DNA from: an uncultured Planctomycetia bacterium
GTDB taxonomy: Bacteria > Omnitrophota > Gorgyraeia > CAYWPX01
Assembly (NCBI GenBank): GCA_964460615.1
Contig: CAYWPX010000007.1
Coordinates: 4,313-68,312, forward strand
Direction of reading: 5' to 3'
Length of the DNA stretch: 64,000 bases
Under the pieces are notes generated by a model. It had not been told where the DNA came from, searched no databases, and was given only the letters and a program-made list of their open reading frames with translations. Both the position numbers and the translations under genes were made by a program. This document shows positions 5,729 through 45,169 of this stretch, in pieces (positions within the stretch are counted from its first letter, which is position 1; each line of letters begins with the position of its first letter).

Positions 5729-8635
5729 CTACATATTTCTAAACGGTTTCTGCCAGGCTTCTTTGAGTAAATCTATATCTATATCGATAGCCGGGCTCCC
5801 GTCTAAGCCTTTAATTTTTAACTTTTTATCTTCCTTAAGCTCTCCTAAAAACCCGAATGGCACTCCTTTGATCATCTTCTCAAAAGCCCTTTTATTCTCT
5901 TTTTTGATTTCAACTATAAATCTTGAGTTGGATTCCGAAAAAAGAAGCTTATAGGTCTTGTCAATACTCGTATCTTTGGGCGCATCTTTAAGATCTATAT
6001 CCATTCCTAGATCCCCGCTAAAAGCCATCTCGCTAAGCGCAACGGCCAATCCTCCCTCCGATAGGTCGTGGCAACTCCTTATAATTCCTTTTGAAATAAT
6101 ACCCGAAAGCTTTTCAAAGGTTTTCTTTGCGGTCTTTACATCAACTTTCGGCACATTATTCCCCAAACCGCCATTAAGTTTATTAAAATAAGATCCTCCT
6201 AATTCATCTTTTGTAAGCCCTATGATATAAATAAGATTGCCCGGGGACTTAGCGTCCATCGTTATGGCCTTTGACACATCGCTCATAACCGATACGCATG
6301 AAATTAGTAAAGTGGGAGGAATAGAGATCACTCTATCACCGGCATTATATTCATTATTCAGGCTATCCTTACCGGAAATGAACGGAACACCAAAACCTTT
6401 TGCTATATCATAGCAGGCAACTGACGCCCTGACGAGCTCGCCAAATGTCTCCGCCTTTTCGGTATTACCCCAGCAAAAATTATCAAGTATAGCAGCCTCT
6501 TTCAAATCCCCGCCGACGGATATTACCTGCCTTAAAGCCTCGTCAATGACAGATGCAGCCATCCAATATGGATCTACAAGCCCGAACCTCGGGTTGATCC
6601 CGCAAGAAATAACTACCCCTTTTTTCGAATCCAAAATCGGTTTTATGATTGCGGCATCGCTTGGCCCGTCATTCTTTGCGCCCACTAAAGGCTTAATAAC
6701 GCTTCCTCCCTGTACCTCGTGGTCATATTGGCGGATTATCCACTCTTTACTGGCTACGCTATAATCAGATAATATCCCTAAAAGAGATTTTTTAAGATCC
6801 TTATCATTAACCTTGGGTTCGTCAAACTTTTTTTCTTTCCAAAATGCGGACCTTGCTTTTTTTGGAATACCTTTATGGAGAAACTGCATATTAAGATCAC
6901 AAACCAAGGTATTTTTATAGAATAATTTTAATCTCAGATCATTGGTAAATTCGCCTATTACCACAGCTTCAACATCCTCTGTCTCGAATATCTCCATGAT
7001 CTCTTTTAATTTATCAGGAGGAACGGCTAAAACCATCCTCTCCTGAGCTTCAGAGATCCAGATCTCAGCATAACTGAGGCCTTCGTATTTAAGCGGGACC
7101 TTATCAATATCAACCCTTGCCCCAAGGTCCTCGCCCATCTCGCCGACTGCGCTAGAGAGGCCTCCAGCCCCGCAATCCGTGATAGCCCTGAATAAATTCT
7201 TATCCCGGGCTTTTAATATGGCCTCCGTTACCTTCTTTTCGGTGATGGGGTTCCCTATCTGAACGGACGAGCTTGATACTTTTTCGGAAAGTACAGTAAG
7301 TTCTCCCGAAGAGAACGTCGCCCCGTGTATGCCATCGCGGCCGGTCCTTCCGCCGACAACAACTACCAAGTCGCCGGTATTAACAACTTTTTTTGATTTA
7401 TTTTTCGGGATAATCCCTACTGTGCCGCAAAAAACTAAAGGGTTACCTAAATATCTTTCATCGAATAAAACGGCACCGTTCACCGTGGGGATACCCATCC
7501 TGTTCCCATAATCGCGCACACCGGAGACAACGCCTTTCATTATACGTTTTGGATGCAGAACTCCTTTTGGCAATTTATCAAAAGCGTGATCAGGCTCGGC
7601 GAAACAGAATATATCGGTATTCGCTATCGGCTTAGCCGTACAGCCTGTCCCAAGAATATCCCTTATTACCCCGCCAATGCCCGTTCCCGCTCCGCCATAA
7701 GGCTCAAGGGCTGAAGGATGGTTATGCGTCTCGACCTTAAAACAGATATTAAATTTATTATCAAATTTGATTATCCCGGCATTGTCCTTAAATACAGAAA
7801 CGCAATAGGGCTTACTGAGATCATCCGTAACCTTCATTATCGTCTCTTTCAGAAGATTATTGAAAATCCTTTTTGATTTCGTACCGTTAAAGAGCTCCTC
7901 TTCGTAAGCTACCTGCCCTCTCAATGTCTTATGCGAGCAATGCTCAGACCAGGTCTGGGCTATGGTTTCAAGTTCACAATCCGTAGGGTTCCTTTTAAGT
8001 TTCTTGAAATATTCTTTTATGACAAGCATCTCGTCCAGAGTAAGGTATAACTGGCCGTCTTTGGATATCTTTAGAAGCGCGTCATTAGAAGCATTGATCA
8101 TATCTACCGTGATCAATTTAAAATTATAGGAGATTTTTTCTTCTATATCTTCGTCTTCTTTCACTATGTGCTGGACGACTTTATTATAGAGGAGTTTTTC
8201 AGAAATAAGCTCAAGCTCATCTTTGGAGATCTTGCCTTTGAGGACGAATTTTCTTGAAGTTCTTACGCCGGATACATTCGTTATACCCATGTCTTTAATG
8301 GCCTTCATGGCGCTTTCTTCCACCGGATCCATAACGCCCGGGTTATGCTTTACCTCTATTACGTTGTGTCCCTCGATAGACCTGTCCTTGAATTCGCCAA
8401 AAATATCATAATCCTGCGTAACCTTATCCGTCAGAAGATTTTCCGAGATGAACCTGATATTACCCTCATCGAGGCTGCCAAAAATGTAGTAGATCTGATA
8501 AAAATCAACAGCTTCTATCGTCTTGACTCCAAGTTCTATTATATCTTTTTTTAAGCCTTCGCCCACAGCGTCAAAAAAGCCTTCTTTTTCAAAGACTTCG
8601 ATACGGTATCTTTTGTGATGATTTTTATTTTCCAT
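5729..8635 (-). CDS. purL: Phosphoribosylformylglycinamidine synthase II with two N-terminal PurS-like modules (PurS-PurS-PurL fusion)
   Basis: 968 aa. The AQTWSEHCSHK PurL motif sits at ~residue 235. About 190 extra N-terminal residues resemble two PurS folds (YRIEVFEKEGFFDAVGEGLKKDI... and HNVIEVKHNPGVMDPVEESAMKAIKDMG...). Confidence 0.88.
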   Translation of the reverse strand: MENKNHHKRYRIEVFEKEGFFDAVGEGLKKDIIELGVKTIEAVDFYQIYYIFGSLDEGNIRFISENLLTDKVTQDYDIFGEFKDRSIEGHNVIEVKHNPGVMDPVEESAMKAIKDMGITNVSGVRTSRKFVLKGKISKDELELISEKLLYNKVVQHIVKEDEDIEEKISYNFKLITVDMINASNDALLKISKDGQLYLTLDEMLVIKEYFKKLKRNPTDCELETIAQTWSEHCSHKTLRGQVAYEEELFNGTKSKRIFNNLLKETIMKVTDDLSKPYCVSVFKDNAGIIKFDNKFNICFKVETHNHPSALEPYGGAGTGIGGVIRDILGTGCTAKPIANTDIFCFAEPDHAFDKLPKGVLHPKRIMKGVVSGVRDYGNRMGIPTVNGAVLFDERYLGNPLVFCGTVGIIPKNKSKKVVNTGDLVVVVGGRTGRDGIHGATFSSGELTVLSEKVSSSSVQIGNPITEKKVTEAILKARDKNLFRAITDCGAGGLSSAVGEMGEDLGARVDIDKVPLKYEGLSYAEIWISEAQERMVLAVPPDKLKEIMEIFETEDVEAVVIGEFTNDLRLKLFYKNTLVCDLNMQFLHKGIPKKARSAFWKEKKFDEPKVNDKDLKKSLLGILSDYSVASKEWIIRQYDHEVQGGSVIKPLVGAKNDGPSDAAIIKPILDSKKGVVISCGINPRFGLVDPYWMAASVIDEALRQVISVGGDLKEAAILDNFCWGNTEKAETFGELVRASVACYDIAKGFGVPFISGKDSLNNEYNAGDRVISIPPTLLISCVSVMSDVSKAITMDAKSPGNLIYIIGLTKDELGGSYFNKLNGGLGNNVPKVDVKTAKKTFEKLSGIISKGIIRSCHDLSEGGLAVALSEMAFSGDLGMDIDLKDAPKDTSIDKTYKLLFSESNSRFIVEIKKENKRAFEKMIKGVPFGFLGELKEDKKLKIKGLDGSPAIDIDIDLLKEAWQKPFRNM

Positions 8636-8689: not shown

Positions 8690-10270
8690 CTATTCCCACT
8701 CGATAGTACTGGGGGGTTTGGAGCTTATATCAAAAACAACTCTGTTAACGCCTTTGACTTCATTAATGACTCTATTTGAGATAATTCCCAATAATTCATA
8801 CGGAAGCTTTGCCCAATCCGCTGTCATGCCGTCAAGACTTGTAACAGAGCGAAGCGCAATGACATTTTCATAAGTCCTCTCATCGCCCATTATGCCTACT
8901 GATTTTACCGGCAACAGAACGCCAAAAGTCTGCCAGGTCTTTGTGTAATACCCGGCCTTTTTTATCTCATCCATGATTATATAATCGGCTTCTTTAAGGA
9001 TCTTCAGGCGGTCCTTTGTGATCTCGCCTATTATCCTTACTGCAAGCCCCGGCCCCGGAAAAGGCTGTCTATATACCACATCATCGGGAAGCCCGAGTTC
9101 TTTACCGACGATCCTTACCTCATCCTTAAAAAGCTCTCTAAAAGGTTCTATGAGCTTAAGATTCATATTCTTTGGTAACCCGCCGACATTATGATGCGTC
9201 TTGATAGTTACAGATGGACCGCCAAAGCTGGAAACACTTTCTATGACATCAGGATAAAGAGTGCCTTGAGCCAAAAACTTTGCATTTCCGATCTTTTTGG
9301 ATTCTTCTTCGAATATCTTTATGAATTCATTACCGATAATTTTTCGTTTTCTTTCGGGATCAGTAACGCCCTCTAATTTTTTTAAAAATCTCTTTTCAGC
9401 ATCAATATATTTTAGATTTATATCAAACTGCTTAAATGTCTTAACTACCCTCTCCGGTTCGTTAAGCCTTAATACGCCGTTATTTACAAATATGCAGTTT
9501 ACCTGCCTTCCGATGGCTTTAGACAATAATACTGCGAGTACCGAAGAATCTACCCCTCCGCTAAGAGCGCAGATGACCTTATCTTTCCCGACAATTTTCT
9601 TTATAAGCGCGGTGGATTTTTTTATGAAAGATTTCATATTCCATGTCGGATGGCATCCTGCGATCTTAAACAGGAAATTTGAAAGTATCTTTTTGCCTTC
9701 CAGCGTATGTACGACCTCGGGATGGAACTGCACTCCAAAAATATTTCTTTCAAAGTCTCCTATGGCAGCGATGTTTGAATTGGAAGTATGAGCTAAGAGC
9801 TTAAAGTTTTTTGGGAGCTTTGAGATCTTGTCCCCATGGCTCATCCAGACCTGAGTCTCTTTTTTAATCCCTTCGAATAATTTTTCATCTCTATTGATTT
9901 TTAATACCGCAAAACCGTATTCTCTTTTTAGAGATTTTTCAACTACTCCTCCGAGAAACTTTCCGATAAGCTGCATCCCGTAACAGACCCCAAGTACAGG
10001 AACTCCCAGATCAAACACTCTTTTGTCGCAAACCGGAGAGTTACTAGCAGTCAGGCTTGCCGGCCCTCCTGATAAAATAATAGCCTTGGGGCTTTTTGCT
10101 ATTATCTTTTCAAAATCGGTATGACATGGGAGTATTTCGCAGTATACCTTCTCTTCCCTCACGCGACGGGCAATAAGCTGGGTATATTGGGATCCGAAAT
10201 CCAGGATTATGACTTTTTCTGAGTGCTCGTCCTCAAAAATTGACTTAATTATTTTATGCTCTTGTTTCAT
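8690..10270 (-). CDS. guaA: GMP synthase (glutamine-hydrolysing)
   Basis: GATase ([10 protein letters not shown]) plus an ATP-PPase domain (SGGVDSSV). The track ORF extends to 10339 and would overlap carB by 86 nt. The internal ATG at 10270 (MKQEHKII...) leaves a 13-nt spacer after the carB stop and is preferred. Confidence 0.9.
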
Positions 10271-25106: not shown

Positions 25107-25143
25107 CTTATCCTCCATTCAATTTTCTATTACATTTCTATAC

Positions 25144-25368
25144 TTAATACAATCCGCCATCATTAAAACAATAGGCGCCAAAAAAACTAACAGGCTCCAA
25201 ATTGCTTTCACGGATCTCTTTCAAGCTTTTTTCAATATCGTTCAGCGCTTTTCCATAATAATCTTTATTGAATTCCCAAAGCGTATCAGACTCTAAGCTT
25301 CCTAATAATGAACTCAATCTTTCTTGCTGGGCCCTGATTCCCGAGATCAAAATATCGTTTTCAGTCAT
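25144..25368 (-). CDS. Small hypothetical protein (74 aa)
   Basis: Strong RBS AGGAGGTG 4 nt upstream of the ATG; lies between the Pho-box promoter and the porin. Confidence 0.45.
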   Translation of the reverse strand: MTENDILISGIRAQQERLSSLLGSLESDTLWEFNKDYYGKALNDIEKSLKEIRESNLEPVSFFGAYCFNDGGLY

Positions 25369-25471
25369 TCTGCACCTCCTTTCTACAACCCAGCTGAATG
25401 TACTAAAATTATTTTGGATGTTTTCATCAAAAAAATTTTAGTATATGCGATGGGGCTGGGCTCTTTGATAA

Positions 25472-25576
25472 TTAAGCGCATCTATAAAAATTGTTCATGT
25501 TCTTCTTTTCTTCTTCAATAATTCTCTTAAGGTAACCATTAATTTTATTTAAAGCCCTGTTTATCTTTTTTTTCAT
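25472..25576 (-). CDS. Candidate small basic peptide (34 aa, MKKKINRALNKINGYLKRIIEEEKKNMNNFYRCA)
   Basis: Found manually; below the track size cut-off. AAGGAGA RBS 6 nt upstream of the ATG; first ORF after the Pho-box-like promoter. Confidence 0.3.
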   Translation of the reverse strand: MKKKINRALNKINGYLKRIIEEEKKNMNNFYRCA

Positions 25577-25638
25577 ATCGCTTTCTCCTTTTTTTTCTTA
25601 ATCTATTTTTGCTTAGAGTATACAAATAATCTGTAAGA

Positions 25639-25672
25639 AATATATGAAGCCTGTGTTAAATCTGTGTAAAAT
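25639..25672 (-). promoter_or_regulatory. Pho-box-like direct repeat with downstream -10 (candidate PhoB/PhoP-dependent promoter of the small-ORF/porin/pst2 unit)
   Basis: Plus strand CTGTGTTAAAT CTGTGTAAAAT, two 11-bp direct repeats resembling E. coli CTGTCATAAAACTGTCATA. On the coding (minus) strand they read TTTACA-N5-TTAACA, i.e. TTHACA repeats 9 nt upstream of TATATT; no sigma-70 -35. Confidence 0.5.
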
Positions 25673-25728
25673 GATATTTTTATGGTTTAAGCAGTTTGGG
25701 GGACGATTGGGGGGAATTATGTGGAAAT

Positions 25729-25768
25729 AAAAAAGCCGGGATATATATTCGATATCCCGGCTTAAAAT
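25729..25768 (-). terminator. Strong (bidirectional) rho-independent terminator after the zinc-ribbon membrane protein gene
   Basis: AGCCGGGATAT-ATATTCG-ATATCCCGGCT stem (11 bp) followed on the minus strand by TTTTTTATTT. Confidence 0.8.
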
Positions 25769-25788
25769 CTTATAAATATAGACTTAAA

Positions 25789-38215: not shown

Positions 38216-38233
38216 GTAAAATCCTCCGAATAT

Positions 38234-38261
38234 AGTACAGCGTACATAGTACCGCGTACAT
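38234..38261. repeat. Two 14-bp tandem repeats AGTACAGCGTACAT / AGTACCGCGTACAT abutting the lrp RBS
   Basis: Related to the 31676-31700 motif (GTACNGCGTA core) with the same 14-bp period; ends ~10 nt upstream of the GGAGGA RBS of lrp. Confidence 0.6.
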
Positions 38262-38359
38262 CGTTAAAACTAAATAAACAAAAAACAACCTTCACTTGAA
38301 TAATAATTCTATCAAGTATTACCTTAAAGGTCAATATGAATTTCTCGTGGTAATAACCC

Positions 38360-38400
38360 TAAAATAACATAGGCGCAGAAAGCCAACTTTACTGCGCCTA
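38360..38400 (-). terminator. Terminator-like hairpin after the radical SAM gene
   Basis: GGCGCAG-N13-CTGCGCC stem, followed by U-rich sequence on both strands. Confidence 0.5.
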
Positions 38401-38521
38401 TTAAATCATTTTAATAAAAACTTTGATTTTTTTATTTTTTAGGTTTTTTAGGTTTTTTTGGCCCGCATGATCCGCATCCCATTTGAATCACCCCCCTTTT
38501 TGTTCTTAAGCTGGTAAAGAA

Positions 38522-41932: not shown

Positions 41933-42121
41933 CTACTTTTTAATTTCTATGCAAGTCACCGGGCAATTGTCTGCGGCTTCCTGTACAGTTGCTTCTAATT
42001 GAGCTGGAACAGCATCTAAAATTGCTTTTGCCTTATCGCCGTCCATGGTGAAAACCTCCGGCGATATAGTGGTGCATAATCCGCATCCGATACAAACCGA
42101 CTGGTCTACTACTGCTTTCAT
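41933..42121 (-). CDS. Small single-cluster 4Fe-4S ferredoxin
   Basis: CIGCGLC...CPVTCI; GGAGG RBS. Confidence 0.75.
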   Translation of the reverse strand: MKAVVDQSVCIGCGLCTTISPEVFTMDGDKAKAILDAVPAQLEATVQEAADNCPVTCIEIKK

Positions 42122-42223
42122 TTTATCCTCCTAAGTGAGCCCCAAGCTTTAGCTGGGGCGAACCACCCCAACGAGTGTGCTAAAATTATCTTAGCTTTAG
42201 CTAAGGGAATTTTGGCACATGTT

Positions 42224-42300
42224 TCCCTCTGCAATTCGAAGAATTGCGAGGACTTAGTCCCGGAAATTATTTTATAATTTCTCGGGGCGAGTTGGGATAT
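42224..42300. repeat. Inverted-repeat copy A (palindromic core CCCTCTGCAATTCGAAGAATTGCGAGG plus ~50 nt flank), downstream of rubredoxin
   Basis: ~75 nt similar to the reverse complement of 42880-42958. Core 27/27 identical apart from a 1-nt indel; flanks share ACTTAGTCCCGGAAATT...AATTTCTCGGGGCGA. Confidence 0.7.
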
Positions 42301-42460
42301 ATACATTATTGATTCCCGACGTCAGTCGGGATGAACTATCCCCACAAGCTACGAGTAAATTTTAGAAGCAAAGCGTATAAAATTTGCGAAGTGCTTTGCT
42401 GTGGGGATTACCATTATTCAATTATTCCCAGCCTTAGTTGAGCTGAACCATCCCAGGGAG

Positions 42461-42505
42461 TATATCAAAATTATTAACACAGAGTGTTGGAAATTTTGAT
42501 ATATA
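42461..42505. repeat. Long AT-rich imperfect hairpin with nested mini-hairpin
   Basis: TATATCAAAATT...AACAC-AGAG-GTGTT...AATTTTGATATA; 12-bp outer arms plus a 5-bp inner stem. Confidence 0.5.
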
Positions 42506-42609
42506 TCACGAACTGGGGTCGTATTTATTAAATTGAGCGCTCTTCTTGAGTCGCTTTCGTTTTAGTTCAGTATAATATACTCTAAAAAATAGTAAAACTC
42601 AAATAATAA

Positions 42610-42771
42610 TTAGACTACTTTCTCAAACTGGTCTTTTGGTGCTCCGCATTCAGGGCATACCCAGTCTTCCGGCAGTGATTCAAATTTGATCCCCGGCTTT
42701 ATCCCGTTTGCCGGATCCCCTATGGCAGGATCATAGATATAACCACAAATAATACAACGCCATTTTTCCAT
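42610..42771 (-). CDS. Rubredoxin
   Basis: [15 protein letters not shown]...[10 protein letters not shown] (two CxxCG knuckles); GGAGGTG RBS 5 nt upstream of the ATG. The track's 27-aa N-terminal extension is taken as non-coding. Confidence 0.85.
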
Positions 42772-42849
42772 CAACGCACCTCCATGTTTTTCTTTTACTA
42801 ATATACCACACCGAAGTAATATTTCATAACTTATTACTGAACGTGACGA

Positions 42850-42868
42850 CATTATGCTTTAGCATAGC
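42850..42868. repeat. Palindromic hairpin CATTATGCTTTAGCATAGC (direct-repeat partner of 43032-43051)
   Basis: 17-nt direct repeat CATTATGCT-NN-AGCATA at both ends of the ~180-bp copy-B segment. Member of a GCTTNAGC hairpin family also present at ~42143-42154 and ~42192-42205. Confidence 0.55.
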
Positions 42869-42874
42869 TTGTTA

Positions 42875-42958
42875 CCCCGCTTCGCCCCTAGAAATTGGGC
42901 TACAATTTCAGGGACTAAAGCCCTCGCAATTCTTCGAATTGCAGAGGGTATAATATCA
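42875..42958. repeat. Inverted-repeat copy B (reverse orientation), upstream of rubredoxin
   Basis: Plus strand CCCTCGCAATTCTTCGAATTGCAGAGGG with the GCTTTAGTCCCTGAAATTGTAGCCCAATTTCTAGGGGCGAAG flank in reverse complement. Confidence 0.7.
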
Positions 42959-43031
42959 CAAAAATCTCTACCCCACAGGGAGTTAAAAGATTTTCTGGGA
43001 GTAATATTTTTGCGACACTGCGCGGGGTTAA

Positions 43032-43051
43032 CATTATGCTGAAGCATAATG
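43032..43051. repeat. Palindromic hairpin CATTATGCTGAAGCATAATG immediately after the nrdJ stop
   Basis: 8-bp stem CATTATGC/GCATAATG with a 4-nt loop; direct-repeat partner of 42850-42868. Confidence 0.55.
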
Positions 43052-45169
43052 TTAAAAATTACACACACCGCTTGCGCAACCTCCTGAATATTCACTGGCG
43101 GCCTTAACGAAATAATCCTTTGGCAGTGTATCTGAAAAACTTAAAACCTGATCTTTCCTTGTTAAATACCTGTATACCGTAATACCTTTACAGCCGAGTT
43201 CATGGGCCCTTAGATAAATACGCCTCACGTCTTCGACTGTCGCTTCTTTCGGCAAATTTATAGTCTTTGATACGGAATTGTCCGTATATTTCTGGAACGC
43301 TGCCTGGATCCTCAAGTGATCCATAGGTTTAATATCAAAACTTGTTACAAATATTTTTTTGACTTTATCAGGTATACTTGGTATCTCCTTTAAAGAGCCA
43401 TGCTCCGCAATTTTCATTAATATCTCTGATCTAAAAAAGTTGTTAGAGCGCGCGACCTTTTCAAATAAAGGATTATATTCTATCAACCGGGTCCCGTCCA
43501 TAACATTTCTTACAAAACTTATCGCAAATATAGGCTCTATTCCGCTTGACGATCCGGAGATTATACTTATTGTTCCTGTCGGAGCTATGGTATTAACTGT
43601 AGCATTCCTGAGTTTGGAGAAACCTTTTTTCGGATAAATAGAGTTTTTAAAATTAGCAAAAGACCCTCTCTCTTTCGCTAATTCTACCGATGCCCTTAGA
43701 GATTCCTGGCGTATAAACTTCATGATTTTCTCTGCCAGAATAACCGCCTTATTTGAATTATAGGGAATATTCAAGGCTATAAGCATATCGGCAAACCCCA
43801 TTACCCCTAAGCCTACTTTGCGATTTTTTTGAGTGATCTCTTTTATTTCGGGCAAAGGAAATTTATTGACCTCAATACAATTATCCAAAAATCTTATACC
43901 AAGATGCACCCTCTCTTTCAGCAATCCCCAGTCAAATCCATCCTTTTTCACAAGCTTAGAAAGATTGATAGATCCGAGATTGCAGCTTTCGTAGGGCAAT
44001 AACGGGAGCTCGCCGCATGGATTTGTCGCTTCGATCTTTCCTAAGGCTGGGGTTGGGTTGTGGCGGTTTACCTCGTCAATAAATATTAGCCCCGGGTCTC
44101 CCGAATGCCAGGCAGCATTGACTATCATATCAAATAAATTTCTGGCGTTTATGGATCTTGTAACTTTATTTGTTCGCGGGTTAATAAGCTCAAAATGCCT
44201 GTTGAACCTTACCGCATCCATGAATTTATCAGTAATAGCAATGGAAAGATTAAAATTTTCAAACTCTTTGGGCAATATTTTTGCCTCAATGAAATCTATG
44301 ATATCCGGATGATCGCATCTAAGGATACCCATGTTGGCTCCGCGCCTCCTGCCTCCCTGAATAATAACTCCCGTAGCGGCATTGAATATCTTCATAAAAG
44401 ACACCGGCCCTGACGCAAGGCCGTTTGTAGAATGGACCAGGTCATTTTTCGGCCTTAGGTTTGAAAAAGAGAAGCCTGTTCCTCCGCCGGTCTGATGGAT
44501 CTTTGCCATACTTTTAAGCGCAGTGAATATATCATCTATGGAATCGCCGACCGGAAGGACAAAGCAAGCCGATAATTGCCCCATTTTCGTTCCGGCATTC
44601 ATAAGCGTTGGGGAATTCGGAAGGAATTCCAATTTCATAAGGGCATCCAGGAACTTGCCTTCATAAAAACTTTTTTTGGATCTTGATTTAAAATTTAATT
44701 CTGCTTTTGATATGGAATTTGCGACCCTTTCCAAAAGCTCTTTGGGGGTTTCGATAACTTTCTGAGAATTATCTTTTAGGAGATATCTTCTTTCGAGGAC
44801 CCTGATAGTATTAATAGGAAGCTTGAGTTCGTCTTTAATTCCTGCGACAGTTTTTGAGAGCCTTAATTCCGCCCTGCGATTTCTATAAAGTATGTAGGCT
44901 CTCGCGATATCAGTATAATGAGACCACATAAGGGCCTCTTCTACTATATCCTGAATATTCTCCACCGATACCGATAAATCTTTCTTTAAGCGCCTCCTGA
45001 TTATATCTAAAACCAGATTTGCAATCTTGCCAGATACAAAACCCGCTTCTTTTTCATCCTGCAAAACTTCAAATGCCGAGCGGAATACAGCGCTTTTAAT
45101 TTTTTCAATATCAAAATCTACTATTGAGCTGTCCCTTTTTTTGACCCTGATGCGCTTATCCACTGTCAA
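43052..45169 (-). CDS. nrdJ: Adenosylcobalamin-dependent (class II) ribonucleotide reductase with N-terminal ATP-cone
   Basis: ATP-cone (VKKRDSSIVDFDIEKI), active site EATNPCGELPLLPYESCNLGSINL, C-terminal Cys pair. Confidence 0.85.
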   Translation of the reverse strand: MTVDKRIRVKKRDSSIVDFDIEKIKSAVFRSAFEVLQDEKEAGFVSGKIANLVLDIIRRRLKKDLSVSVENIQDIVEEALMWSHYTDIARAYILYRNRRAELRLSKTVAGIKDELKLPINTIRVLERRYLLKDNSQKVIETPKELLERVANSISKAELNFKSRSKKSFYEGKFLDALMKLEFLPNSPTLMNAGTKMGQLSACFVLPVGDSIDDIFTALKSMAKIHQTGGGTGFSFSNLRPKNDLVHSTNGLASGPVSFMKIFNAATGVIIQGGRRRGANMGILRCDHPDIIDFIEAKILPKEFENFNLSIAITDKFMDAVRFNRHFELINPRTNKVTRSINARNLFDMIVNAAWHSGDPGLIFIDEVNRHNPTPALGKIEATNPCGELPLLPYESCNLGSINLSKLVKKDGFDWGLLKERVHLGIRFLDNCIEVNKFPLPEIKEITQKNRKVGLGVMGFADMLIALNIPYNSNKAVILAEKIMKFIRQESLRASVELAKERGSFANFKNSIYPKKGFSKLRNATVNTIAPTGTISIISGSSSGIEPIFAISFVRNVMDGTRLIEYNPLFEKVARSNNFFRSEILMKIAEHGSLKEIPSIPDKVKKIFVTSFDIKPMDHLRIQAAFQKYTDNSVSKTINLPKEATVEDVRRIYLRAHELGCKGITVYRYLTRKDQVLSFSDTLPKDYFVKAASEYSGGCASGVCNF

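Follow-up and report, generated by a model that had tools for sequence, protein, structure and literature searches.

Intergenic palindromic repeats such as REP, BIME, BOX, ERIC and Correia elements are known mainly from cultured Proteobacteria and Firmicutes. BOX of Streptococcus pneumoniae, ERIC and Correia (NEMIS) are modular (boxA-B-C-like) or long imperfect palindromes that lie between genes and are co-transcribed with them; they adopt stable RNA folds and can alter mRNA stability or neighbour expression in an orientation-dependent manner. ERIC and Correia have terminal inverted repeats, Correia also TA duplications, and the ends of IS608-type elements reach 10-20 nt beyond their hairpins. 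REPs are small palindromes of 20-40 bp, present in high copy number, that carry an unpaired GTAG or CGTC tag at one end and are mainly located shortly 3' of a coding region, with neighbouring ORFs unidirectional or convergent (PMC3733652). In REPINs, two inverted REPs form one hairpin, and the genome contains a cognate RAYT gene (PMC3116915). For IS200/IS605 elements, orientation bias could reflect lagging-strand targeting (PMC6006769).

The inverted arms that surround a rubredoxin gene in our window (the whole 64,000-nt stretch of DNA that was analysed) represent a dispersed structured intergenic repeat in two separate copies, each complete and opposite in orientation to the other. It is a previously undescribed, highly structured family that fills intergenic spacers in many Omnitrophota genomes; a literature search returned no paper with its junction sequence and no description of Omnitrophota repeats or ncRNAs. 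The full unit of about 135 nt is modelled as a four-way junction composed of a closing stem P1, two bulged hairpins P2 and P3, and a variable hairpin P4 with the pattern ..AAAATT..AATTTT... P2 and P3 are conserved, joined by ACTAAGT and in direct arrangement, each folding separately. Downstream of P1-P4 come the linker AUCAAUUC, hairpin P5 and the tail UCAUUGA. The tail is base-paired to the linker, and its end usually coincides exactly with the Shine-Dalgarno (SD) site or the start codon of the next gene. The order of P5 hairpin, tail and SD is common to most copies, the tail being 0-2 nt from the SD or ATG in most sense copies. Comparison of copies argues strongly for the predicted structure: across 47 pairs, 96.9% of the cells are paired and 17 pairs have changed on both sides, with 0 of 500 shuffles and 31-51% in slide controls. 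Both-side changes are found in 31 of the 44 pairs of the scaffold and, among diverse modules, in 8 of the 21 pairs of P2/P3; junctions and loops are conserved above the stems, and the stems covary. Short end repeats (CTTCAT, CTCATC, TCATT) occur in a few units only and not systematically. No conserved promoter was found upstream of P1, where stop codons and AT-rich stretches occur with no consistent -35/-10 elements. The features of the locus, in the direction in which its genes are read, and one further unit of the window are as follows.

43052..45169, minus strand: ribonucleotide reductase (RNR) gene, 705 aa; homologs are named adenosylcobalamin-dependent in their sources
43028..43055, no strand: perfect 13+13 palindrome TTAACATTATGCT-GA-AGCATAATGTTAA (inverted- and direct-repeat search), the P5-type hairpin of copy B and right copy of an 18-nt direct repeat; it overlaps the RNR stop codon (43052-43054)
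42872..43036, plus strand: copy B, full four-way-junction unit (model R1, 102.2 bits, E ~6e-27 to 6e-29), with P1, P2, P3 and P4, the P4 loop carrying a 36-nt insert
42885..42948, plus strand: P2-P3 double-hairpin module of copy B (module pattern and alignment); its P3 (42922-42948) is a 27-nt core shared with copy A
42849..42866, no strand: hairpin ACATTATGCTTTAGCATA, left copy of the direct repeat at copy B (repeat search)
42772..42848, minus strand: rubredoxin upstream region with a weak sigma-70-like site and an SD (consensus match)
42610..42771, minus strand: rubredoxin gene, 53 aa (Pfam PF00301, matched on an 80-aa call)
42435..42520, minus strand: unit A3, module-less scaffold (P1 + P4; model R2, 36.3 bits, E = 4e-6; 20.7 bits with R1; the MFE fold agrees), in sense with the genes and followed by GGTTC and a hairpin at about 42429-42445
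42306..42408, minus strand: unit A2, probable module-less scaffold (sequence reading and MFE fold; R2, 15.8 bits, E = 0.25), with P1 ATCCCCACA/TGTGGGGAT (42408-42400 paired with 42346-42338); next come the linker, AGTTC, a P5 hairpin at 42313-42332 and the tail, which reads TCAATAA
42157..42300, minus strand: copy A, full four-way-junction unit (model R1, 120.9 bits, E ~2e-32), in sense with the genes; it constitutes the leader of the ferredoxin gene
42225..42287, minus strand: P2-P3 module of copy A (core match, module pattern and alignment); its P3 (42225-42251) is the 27-nt core
42190..42205, no strand: small hairpin CTTAGCTTTAGCTAAG within copy A's P4 loop, an insert specific to this copy in the alignment
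42127..42159, minus strand: P5 hairpin (GCCCCAGCTAAAGCTTGGGGC, 42139-42159), tail (TCACTTA, 42132-42138) and SD (AGGAGG, 42127-42132) of copy A, from the sequence, the SD lying directly 5' of the ferredoxin ATG at 42121
41933..42121, minus strand: ferredoxin gene, 62 aa (Pfam Fer4_15 and Fer4_13 on an identical product)
25381..25462, minus strand: module-less P1+P4 unit elsewhere in the window (R2, 30.1 bits, E = 1e-4), flanked by the stop of a 34-aa ORF (25472-25576) on one side and by the SD of a 74-aa ORF (25144-25368) on the other

The inverted repeat is real. Near-identical segments in opposite orientation had been described here in the initial annotation, and the arms are indeed about 82% identical over some 95 nt with an identical core. 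The inverted-repeat search returns 42204-42255 against 42918-42969 (52 nt, 83% complementary) and 42254-42299 against 42873-42918 (46 nt, 74%); the MAFFT alignment of the arms gives 82% mean column identity, and blastn aligns a 45-nt stretch of them (93%, E = 2e-10). In the window the 27-nt core CCCTCTGCAATTCGAAGAATTGCGAGG has two exact occurrences, 42225-42251 (+) and 42922-42948 (-), whereas 100 shuffles gave 0 matches. What did not stand is the extent ascribed to the similarity, about 50 nt of flank: each arm is a full unit, of 144 and 165 nt. Copies A and B both cover all 133 positions of model R1 (1-133), the seed alignment of which included copy A and left out copy B. The arms are independent units, and their scaffolds differ. 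A direct repeat reported around copy B was recovered as ACATTATGCTTTAGCATA at 42849-42866 and ACATTATGCTGAAGCATA at 43031-43048, 18 nt with 2 mismatches against a shuffled maximum of 11. It is a peculiarity of copy B and not a trait of the family, in which flanking direct repeats exceed those of shuffles in only 2 of 21 units, so that target-site duplication is not a family trait. Two hairpins placed at 42143 and 42192 were likewise found, at 42139-42159 and 42190-42205. The hairpins with GCTTNAGC, seen as a family in their own right, are by themselves about as common in the window as chance predicts (10 against 8.95); their clustering at the rubredoxin locus, where 4 of the 10 lie, is notable, and there they belong to the repeat units as P5 hairpins plus one P4-loop insert.

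The 488-nt rubredoxin-ferredoxin spacer is taken up by a tandem array that ends with copy A, which abuts the ferredoxin SD, and copy B sits inverted between RNR and rubredoxin, antisense to both. The roughly 300 bp of dense structure noted between rubredoxin and copy A resolves into further module-less units. A3 is confirmed by model R2, which was built without window sequences and is independent of the window, and A2 is marginal as a family scaffold. A tRNA/tmRNA scan gave no hit. With Rfam 15, no match in the window reached the gathering score; at permissive E-values nothing relevant appeared, either in the region (E <= 10) or at three other loci (E <= 0.5).

The core is dispersed well beyond this locus, as the search of other genomes proposed with the initial annotation made clear: 25 exact matches were obtained in 24 reference-genome loci, 13 of them in one Omnitrophota MAG. 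The junction signature was found in 52 metagenome loci, a few of which are chance matches. Modules are nearly identical among copies, also across distant genomes. The genes downstream of the units are diverse and have no common function; those flanking them are housekeeping genes spread over many contigs. Among fully flanked copies, 42 of 45 lie between co-directional ORFs, and most canonical units begin 0-20 nt past the upstream stop. Viral contigs, searched with three patterns, gave no family member (two chance matches had no hairpins), and plasmid and phage BLAST gave no match. Searches around the copies turned up no transposase, RAYT or recombinase, and no transposase-like neighbour recurs among 270 ORFs near them.

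The family is modular and subject to turnover. P2-P3 constitutes a separable module of about 63 nt. In the window it lies between P1 and P4; elsewhere it may instead occupy the P4 loop, or both positions at once, and in other lineages, among them Ratteibacteria and AT-rich ones, it stands alone. It is present or absent at the orthologous site of 96%-identical genomes, with loop inversions. Depending on the lineage, a given gene junction carries one whole unit, none or several in tandem, and unit-bearing junctions stand against ATGA/TAAATG-type gene junctions or spacers of 2-14 nt in relatives that otherwise carry family members. Tandem arrays occur at the window locus and at one other (L087), and in a relative, L082 (9281-9545), an inverted pair of units has no gene between its members. 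Paralogous units of one genome differ in P1, P4 and P5, which is not how an actively spreading element would look; an identical unit at two loci of one MAG is the only such pair found. In one orthologous pair of units (L015/L016), the sequence between stop and start codon is 98% identical, against 69-78% for the flanking genes and 58% for third codon positions, which suggests that the unit is strongly constrained in place.

Set beside the described systems, the family resembles REP/BIME in being multi-copy imperfect palindromes of transcribed spacers, found in both orientations and in mosaics or tandem clusters of modules. Its location between co-directional ORFs, near the upstream stop, is that of REPs; plausible RNA structures once transcribed are a further shared trait (PMC3733652), the stems here being kept by paired changes. 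P2 and P3 measure about 25-35 nt each, but the repeated unit is much larger and multi-hairpin, a four-way junction with P5 and not a 20-40 bp hairpin. Of 56 modules, only 4 have GTAG, CTAC, CGTC or GACG within 8 nt of a hairpin foot, and the junction has none of these tags. The placement of the 3' end at the SD, the lack of a RAYT near copies and the occurrence in Omnitrophota and other uncultured lineages also set the family apart from REP/BIME. P2-P3 recalls a REPIN as a doublet of similar bulged hairpins with a short spacer, more conserved than its surroundings and polymorphic between close genomes like a replicative unit (PMC3116915). In contrast to a REPIN, however, the two hairpins are direct and no RAYT gene adjoins any copy. 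BOX, ERIC and Correia share with the family the modular or long imperfect palindromic build, the intergenic position and the co-transcription; they have no sequence similarity to it, and it lacks terminal inverted repeats and target duplications, with the nesting of a module in another's loop distinctive of the new family. Similarity to IS200/IS605 lies in imperfect hairpins with extrahelical bases, absence of terminal inverted repeats and target duplication, orientation bias and strand-symmetric Watson-Crick stems; yet no TnpA/TnpB was found nearby, no conserved target tetranucleotide was identified, and conservation stops at the hairpin feet, unlike in IS608-type ends. An attC site shares conserved structure and bulges, variable stem sequence, location right after the stop of co-oriented genes and orientation tied to the gene. 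The initial annotation had seen no attC-like core, and in agreement with it RYYYAAC and GTTRRRY each have one incidental match in 42100-43080, neither at a unit end; there is no integrase between 33.5 and 52 kb, and the neighbours are scattered housekeeping genes, not a cassette array. As regards MITEs, terminal inverted repeats with target-site duplication are not a feature of the units, and the module ends CCCC..GGGG are hairpin feet and not a TIR common to known IS; module and whole units are polymorphic, and near-identical whole-unit paralogs amount to one pair. A classical TIR-type MITE is seen, by contrast, at another locus (L012). Described cis-regulatory RNAs and riboswitches differ in that the family has no Rfam 15 match, diverse downstream genes and G-U pairs about as frequent as A-C.

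Based on the collective evidence, the family is understood, with a probability of about 0.6, as a modular intergenic DNA repeat of REP/BIME/BOX-like type, and the inverted arms around rubredoxin as a by-product of two insertions. The DNA would spread and expand in the short spacers of co-directional genes, probably by way of folded single-stranded DNA, and would be tolerated there because stop codon and SD stay intact. Once co-transcribed, it would fold in the mRNA and may affect the decay or translation of neighbouring genes; the layout around rubredoxin would then reflect two independent insertions. Pairing is strand-symmetric, with 13 G-U pairs in the sense and 14 in the antisense reading of the module at equal folding energies, and 30 G-U, 24 A-C and 31 other mismatches in the scaffold, 92% of which is Watson-Crick. 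This symmetry favours a co-transcribed DNA repeat like REP/BIME, and for want of any strand asymmetry in G-U against A-C counts or in folding energies the unit was dropped as a clear-cut 5'-leader RNA. Conservation of the L015/L016 unit, sense bias (35 sense, 7 antisense) and adjacency of tail and SD nevertheless fit a role at the RNA level at least as well. Hence a tentative possibility is a host-functional intercistronic four-way junction that would determine how the downstream gene is processed, stabilised or loaded with ribosomes, perhaps via a protein recognising the bulged P2-P3 hairpins or by self-cleavage. The conservation of junctions and loops above covarying stems and the divergence of paralogs speak for it, as does orientation, which at the one informative locus follows the flanking genes and not the local majority strand. 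It is weakened by the missing G-U excess on the sense strand, by downstream genes that share no function, by the lack of an Rfam family, by relatives that carry the family and have the same junction without the unit, by antisense copies (about 17%) that are in part intact (L020, 150 bits), and by one unit (L031) that is followed by a promoter-like site and no SD. According to a further proposal, which we consider rather unlikely, the unit is an 'operon punctuation' RNA: recognised by a dedicated protein or nuclease via the invariant bulged P2-P3 hairpins, or else self-cleaving, it would serve to process polycistronic mRNAs and pass the ribosome on to the SD or start codon adjoining its tail. 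If this were true, the 98% conservation of L015/L016 against saturated synonymous sites would reflect function, and copy B would be a 3'-end structure of RNR or a partner in a double-stranded processing stalk.

Explanations specific to rubredoxin fare less well. A long-range RNA clamp was among the options of the initial annotation. In the version considered here, the arms of a read-through RNR-rubredoxin-ferredoxin transcript would form a duplex of about 95 bp, for instance an RNase III stalk, with sequestration or excision of the rubredoxin cistron as the outcome. Folding of the transcript 43080-42100 makes it thermodynamically possible, as 65 A-B pairs appear in the MFE structure and the arm duplex is worth -113 kcal/mol against -26 and -35 (about -61 together) for the local folds. 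It finds no comparative support, though, and is improbable: each arm folds into local hairpins as it is transcribed, the two are about 670 nt apart with a translated ORF between them, and rubredoxin appears to have its own promoter-like site (ATGAAA, 16 nt, TG-extended TATATT, 42827-42800; 9 of 12 positions by consensus match only) downstream of copy B on the gene strand. Antisense copies are moreover a regular minority of the family, and an inverted pair is thus expected by chance. Comparison with the relative L082, the synteny of which was obtained via CcdA, adds to this. L082 has the same TrxB-rubredoxin-ferredoxin-thioredoxin-CcdA cluster with rubredoxin in the same slot and gene orientation, has neither copy B nor any module, and carries a strong TTGACA-17-TAGAAT upstream of rubredoxin; rubredoxin and ferredoxin are each 74% identical to its orthologs. 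Its ferredoxin leader resembles a reduced scaffold by eye only, and this candidate was set aside, R2 giving no match at E <= 1. RNR is missing from the equivalent position, and synteny via RNR was not found, the next-best homolog being 64% identical and the Omnitrophota homolog examined not syntenic. Rubredoxin has long been part of a conserved redox cluster, TrxB-Rd-Fd-Trx-CcdA-TlpA-rSAM. Because L082 keeps that cluster without copy B or modules, the repeats did not import rubredoxin. A composite mobile cassette or MITE with rubredoxin between its two ends, as first suggested by a small gene between inverted copies and the 18-nt direct repeat at copy B, is already contradicted by synteny and is the least credible of the readings: the scaffolds of the arms differ, copy A belongs to a tandem array serving as ferredoxin leader, attC core sites and integrase are lacking, and next to copy B it is RNR, not rubredoxin, that differs from L082. 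Of the MITE-like idea there survive a dispersed repeat family and a module that is mobile or indel-polymorphic, but not a single element bracketing rubredoxin. Hardly more probable is an invertible segment, whereby recombination of the inverted copies would flip 0.67 kb with rubredoxin and its promoter. The identical 27-nt core and the hairpin-loop inversions at DNA level in the family would suit it. The repeat is, however, a genome-wide family and no dedicated site, no invertase, recombinase or integrase family is present among the genes from about 33.5 to 52 kb (in line with the absence already annotated), gene orientation is the same in L082, and a second assembly of the same strain (run SRR12487046, maybe not an independent sample) has the orientation of the window all the way from copy B to copy A.

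Lastly, our study has practical importance in that the repeat breaks metagenome assemblies at the core and can create chimeric contigs; its recognition leads to better annotation of these genomes. Spurious gene calls are attracted by it as well, such as a 78-aa ORF over copy B in one assembly. The two-layer build is unusual, with an old, structure-conserved four-way-junction scaffold, sitting exactly between the stop codon and the next ribosome-binding site, and a smaller double-hairpin module that inserts at defined places of the scaffold. Should the family be selfish DNA, its mobilisation would point to a mechanism not yet recognised, no transposase, terminal repeats or duplications having been found; should it be a functional RNA, it would constitute a widespread intercistronic element.

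The two inverted arms around the rubredoxin gene, copy A (42157-42300, minus strand) and copy B (42872-43036, plus strand), are independent copies of a dispersed, modular and highly structured intergenic repeat family. The inverted repeat described in the initial annotation is real and far beyond chance, also on realignment: a repeat search of the window pairs 42204-42255 with 42918-42969 (52 nt, 83% complementary) and 42254-42299 with 42873-42918 (46 nt, 74%), blastn aligns the arms at 93% over 45 nt (E = 2e-10), and the 64-kb window contains the 27-nt core precisely two times, one copy per strand, as against none in 100 shuffles. An 18-nt direct repeat indeed flanks copy B. The probable genes of the window are tightly packed on the minus strand, in the local order TrxB, ribonucleotide reductase (RNR), 280 nt, rubredoxin, 488 nt, ferredoxin, thioredoxin, CcdA and TlpA-like; across 1-64000, about 60 real-looking ORFs (all ORFs are mechanical calls) follow in succession, every one on that strand.

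Similarity among aligned copies reaches well past the arms as first drawn and outlines a unit of the following elements, written 5' to 3' on the reverse complement of the annotated core.

P1 5' strand, then UCG
P2, CCCCUAGAAAUUGC..GCAAUUUCAGGG with a bulged A, then ACUAAGU
P3, CCUCGCAAUUC nnn GAAUUGCAGAGG with a bulged A (the annotated core), then UAAGAU
P4, variable, ..CAAAAUU loop AAUUUUG.., then CUC
P1 3' strand, then linker AUCAAUUC
Hairpin P5, then tail UCAUUGA, then GGAGG and ATG

The RNAalifold consensus of 17 copies is a four-way junction, and compensatory changes occur in 16 of its 47 pairs. In 22 copies aligned to a covariance model, a procedure biased towards the model's structure, 96.9% of cells are paired and 17 pairs are changed on both sides; none of 500 shuffles attains any of the measures, and shifting the partners by 1-3 columns leaves only 31-51% pairing. 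The covariance model of the full unit (R1), with copy A in its seed and copy B outside it, matches both at full length, with 120.9 and 102.2 bits, respectively. Copies were fetched by exact patterns, so that conservation of the pattern regions is built in. The family appears undescribed: the unit matches nothing in Rfam in any of its forms, and a literature search found the junction sequence in no paper. Plasmids, phages and viral contigs gave no match to the unit.

The annotated family of GCTTNAGC hairpins breaks down into parts of these units. The small hairpins do exist, while the motif GCTTNAGC alone is at chance in the window (10 versus 8.95 expected).

42139-42159, P5 hairpin of copy A
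42190-42205, insert in the P4 loop of copy A
42849-42866, P5-like hairpin on the opposite side of copy B
43028-43055, P5 hairpin of copy B

The core also occurs beyond this locus. Searching one genome per species with the loop left free returned 25 matches across 24 DNA stretches, 13 of them in a single Omnitrophota MAG (Hainich-H51-bin333-1) with others in additional Omnitrophota, in one MAG of Ratteibacteria and in one Planctomycetia bin. Judged by this distribution and by the source names of protein homologs, the window probably belongs to an Omnitrophota bacterium. In metagenomes, a scan keyed to the P2/P3 junction yielded 52 loci, a few being chance matches, and these loci reveal P2-P3 as a separable module of ~63 nt (CCCC[G/U]AG-hairpin-C[C/A]GGG ACUAAGU CCUCG-hairpin-CAGAGGG) whose distal stems covary, with both sides changed in 8 of 21 pairs. 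The module is found in four settings.

Between P1 and P4: both window copies
In the loop of P4 on the same scaffold, flanked by CUCU and UCGAY
In both positions at once: L074, L008, L010
Alone in AT-rich spacers: Ratteibacteria copies, Planctomycetia bin

In silico deletion of the module from the two unit types left scaffolds that align as a single family; of the 44 pairs in its consensus, which includes a linker-tail helix (UCAAU/AUUGA, UUAAU/AUUAA, UAAAU/AUUUA), 31 are changed on both sides. A covariance model of bare scaffolds (R2), built with the window sequences excluded, detects the following in the window.

42435-42520, module-less unit, E = 4e-6
3' half of copy A, E = 0.02
42306-42408, further unit, marginal, E = 0.25
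25381-25462, new unit elsewhere in the window, E = 1e-4

The gene-strand MFE fold of the rubredoxin-ferredoxin spacer contains three units in tandem, and in each a separate P1 forms the closing stem. The distant unit at 25381-25462 lies in a 670-nt "gap" (25119-25788) and separates two short ORFs with good SDs, of 34 aa (25472-25576) and 74 aa (25144-25368); a terminator-like hairpin, CCGGGATATCGAATATATATCCCGG plus a T-run, is seen at about 25730-25760.

Placement of 58 distinct modules follows, with counts to which one genome may contribute more than once and in which some copies are duplicates by orthology.

Sense, between co-directional ORFs: 35
Antisense, between co-directional ORFs: 7, window copy B included
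Divergent ORFs: 2
Convergent ORFs: 1
Single neighbour visible: 13, all consistent with sense

In canonical units, the start usually falls 0-20 nt past the upstream stop codon, and the tail is followed by an SD within 0-2 nt or by the start codon directly; in L031 a good promoter-like site takes the place of the SD. Downstream genes, judged from their translations, are functionally unrelated (GAPDH-like, ATPase c-subunit, response regulator, LptF-family permease, SMC, sigma factor, PPDK-like, RibH, ferredoxin), and none of the proteins neighbouring copies recurs. Flanking direct repeats, present at 2 of 21 units, are no family trait; GTAG/CGTC tags are absent from the family. Metagenome contigs often stop within the module or unit (L001, L002 and L080, at window 42238-42254 and 42309; also L005, L014, L019, L028, L030, L041, L049 and L063), and L077, with the left half of its unit matching L039 and the right half L003, looks like a chimera. 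The repeat breaks short-read assemblies and may mis-join them. ORFs of 57-78 aa crossing units (42118-42306 and 42859-43095, minus; 42869-43042, plus) are almost certainly artefacts that the repeat induces in gene calling; the 78-aa ORF over copy B was called as a gene in a Logan assembly (L080 1122-1358) and has no Pfam match.

That the repeats carried rubredoxin in is contradicted by synteny. The relative L082 (identity to the window 64% for CcdA, 74% each for rubredoxin and ferredoxin) has the cluster in identical gene order and orientation, TrxB, 102 nt, rubredoxin, 145 nt, ferredoxin, thioredoxin, CcdA, TlpA-like and radical SAM, with collinearity extending through AsnC, an aminotransferase, HycI, CbiM and CbiQ; rubredoxin occupies the same slot, and the cluster is without RNR, module or R1 match. 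The window's RNR (43052-45169) overlaps the TrxB stop and is missing between TrxB and rubredoxin in L082 (5086-6294), so that RNR and copy B, rather than rubredoxin, constitute the lineage-specific difference at this spot. Relative to L082, the window lineage has added RNR together with copy B at one flank of rubredoxin, and modules together with extra units at the other. L082 itself has an opposed scaffold pair between its radical-SAM and AsnC genes (9281-9401, plus, and 9463-9545, minus; R2 38.8 and 50.1 bits) with no credible gene in between, showing that inverted pairs are not special to rubredoxin; no match to a model lies in the orthologous gap of the window (38216-38521, 306 nt). A 63-aa ORF called across the L082 pair has no Pfam match. 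By eye, the ferredoxin leader of L082 looks like a linker-P5-tail-SD arrangement, but it went undetected by R2 and is kept as a resemblance only. Upstream of the L082 rubredoxin (6031-6132) is a strong promoter-like TTGACA-17-TAGAAT, and a palindrome AAATTTCAATTAGAAATT overlapping the -35 could be an operator; the rubredoxin upstream regions of window and L082 are not alignable by eye.

An inversion switch is also improbable, although an inverted minority form may exist. Contigs from run SRR12487046, 100% identical to the window and possibly from its own sample, show a single orientation: one passes from RNR through copy B, rubredoxin and reduced units to end in the P3 of copy A at 42238, and the next begins at 42254, which indicates the window's orientation and an assembly broken at the repeat. 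As initially stated, no recombinase or integrase gene is nearby (neither these families nor transposases among the genes at about 33.5-52 kb) and attC core sites are absent. An RNA clamp, in which the two arms would pair on a hypothetical read-through transcript, is energetically possible, given that the MFE fold of that transcript pairs them (65 pairs, -113 versus about -61 kcal/mol for local folds). Against it, the local hairpins form first as the transcript is made, the arms are separated by a translated ORF, a rubredoxin promoter-like site lies downstream of copy B, and selection on arm pairing lacks comparative support. What stands of the original proposal is repeat elements with a mobile or indel-polymorphic module, not a rubredoxin-specific cassette, switch or device.

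Turnover is seen at orthologous junctions. L025 and L074 represent one locus (96% identity) differing by a 67-nt module in the P4 loop; between L025:2349-2492 and L074:869-1078 the P2 loop is inverted (CCGAAGG versus CCTTCGG) and the P4 loop apparently too (GTCGCAGAG versus CTC..TGCGAC). The loop differences are small DNA-level hairpin-loop inversions, and the inner module is mobile or indel-polymorphic. The ribBA-ribH junction has a unit in L025/L074; in L031 (61% protein identity) it is a plain spacer of 14 nt. At another junction, where TAA and ATG abut directly in L043, L023 has an insert of 195 nt that includes a unit. The ComF-like/LptF junction has one unit each in L015 and L016, is empty in L085 (LptF identity 81%) and L088 (58%), and in L087 (74%) holds three tandem bare scaffolds as read, two scoring 75 and 67 bits with R2. 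An identical unit at non-orthologous loci was found for one pair only, L014/L019. Unrelated to these units, a ~190-nt insertion in an Omnitrophota genome (L012:7375-7575, compared with L069) has 15-nt terminal inverted repeats (CAAAAGTAATAGGAA / TTCCTATTACTTTTG) and is a classical TIR-type MITE.

The main rival is a host-functional intercistronic RNA. The sense bias of 35:7, the tail adjoining the SD and the divergence of paralogous units speak for it, as does the sole locus whose flanking genes oppose the local majority strand, where the unit follows the flanking genes. Its strongest point is L015/L016 (L015:3929-4110), a pair from two species: from stop to start codon they are 98% identical (121/123 and 56/57), with flanking genes at 69-78% and third codon positions of the downstream gene at 58%. 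This conservation conflicts, in a manner unexplained, with the ease of unit loss or gain at that junction across L085, L087 and L088. Evolved RNA folds usually carry a G-U-rich, strand-specific signature, from which the family's pairing differs. The first alignment has 22 G-U against 14 A-C (p = 0.24); in 50 distinct modules G-U pairs stand at 13 versus 14, with equal sense and antisense folding energies; and the scaffold alignment, 92% Watson-Crick, has 30 G-U, 24 A-C and 31 other mismatches. The pairing is strand-symmetric and resembles random noise on palindromes. This symmetry, the inverted loops and the precise indels together favour a REP/BIME-type repeat acting at the DNA level. REPs, with REPINs as a related comparison (PMC3116915), are likewise found 3' of coding regions, where neighbouring genes are unidirectional, and a role as RNA after transcription has been proposed for them (PMC3733652). 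We therefore consider, with moderate confidence, that the best mechanism is a REP/BIME-like palindromic repeat that would colonise intercistronic spacers, expand within them and be co-transcribed with the neighbouring genes.
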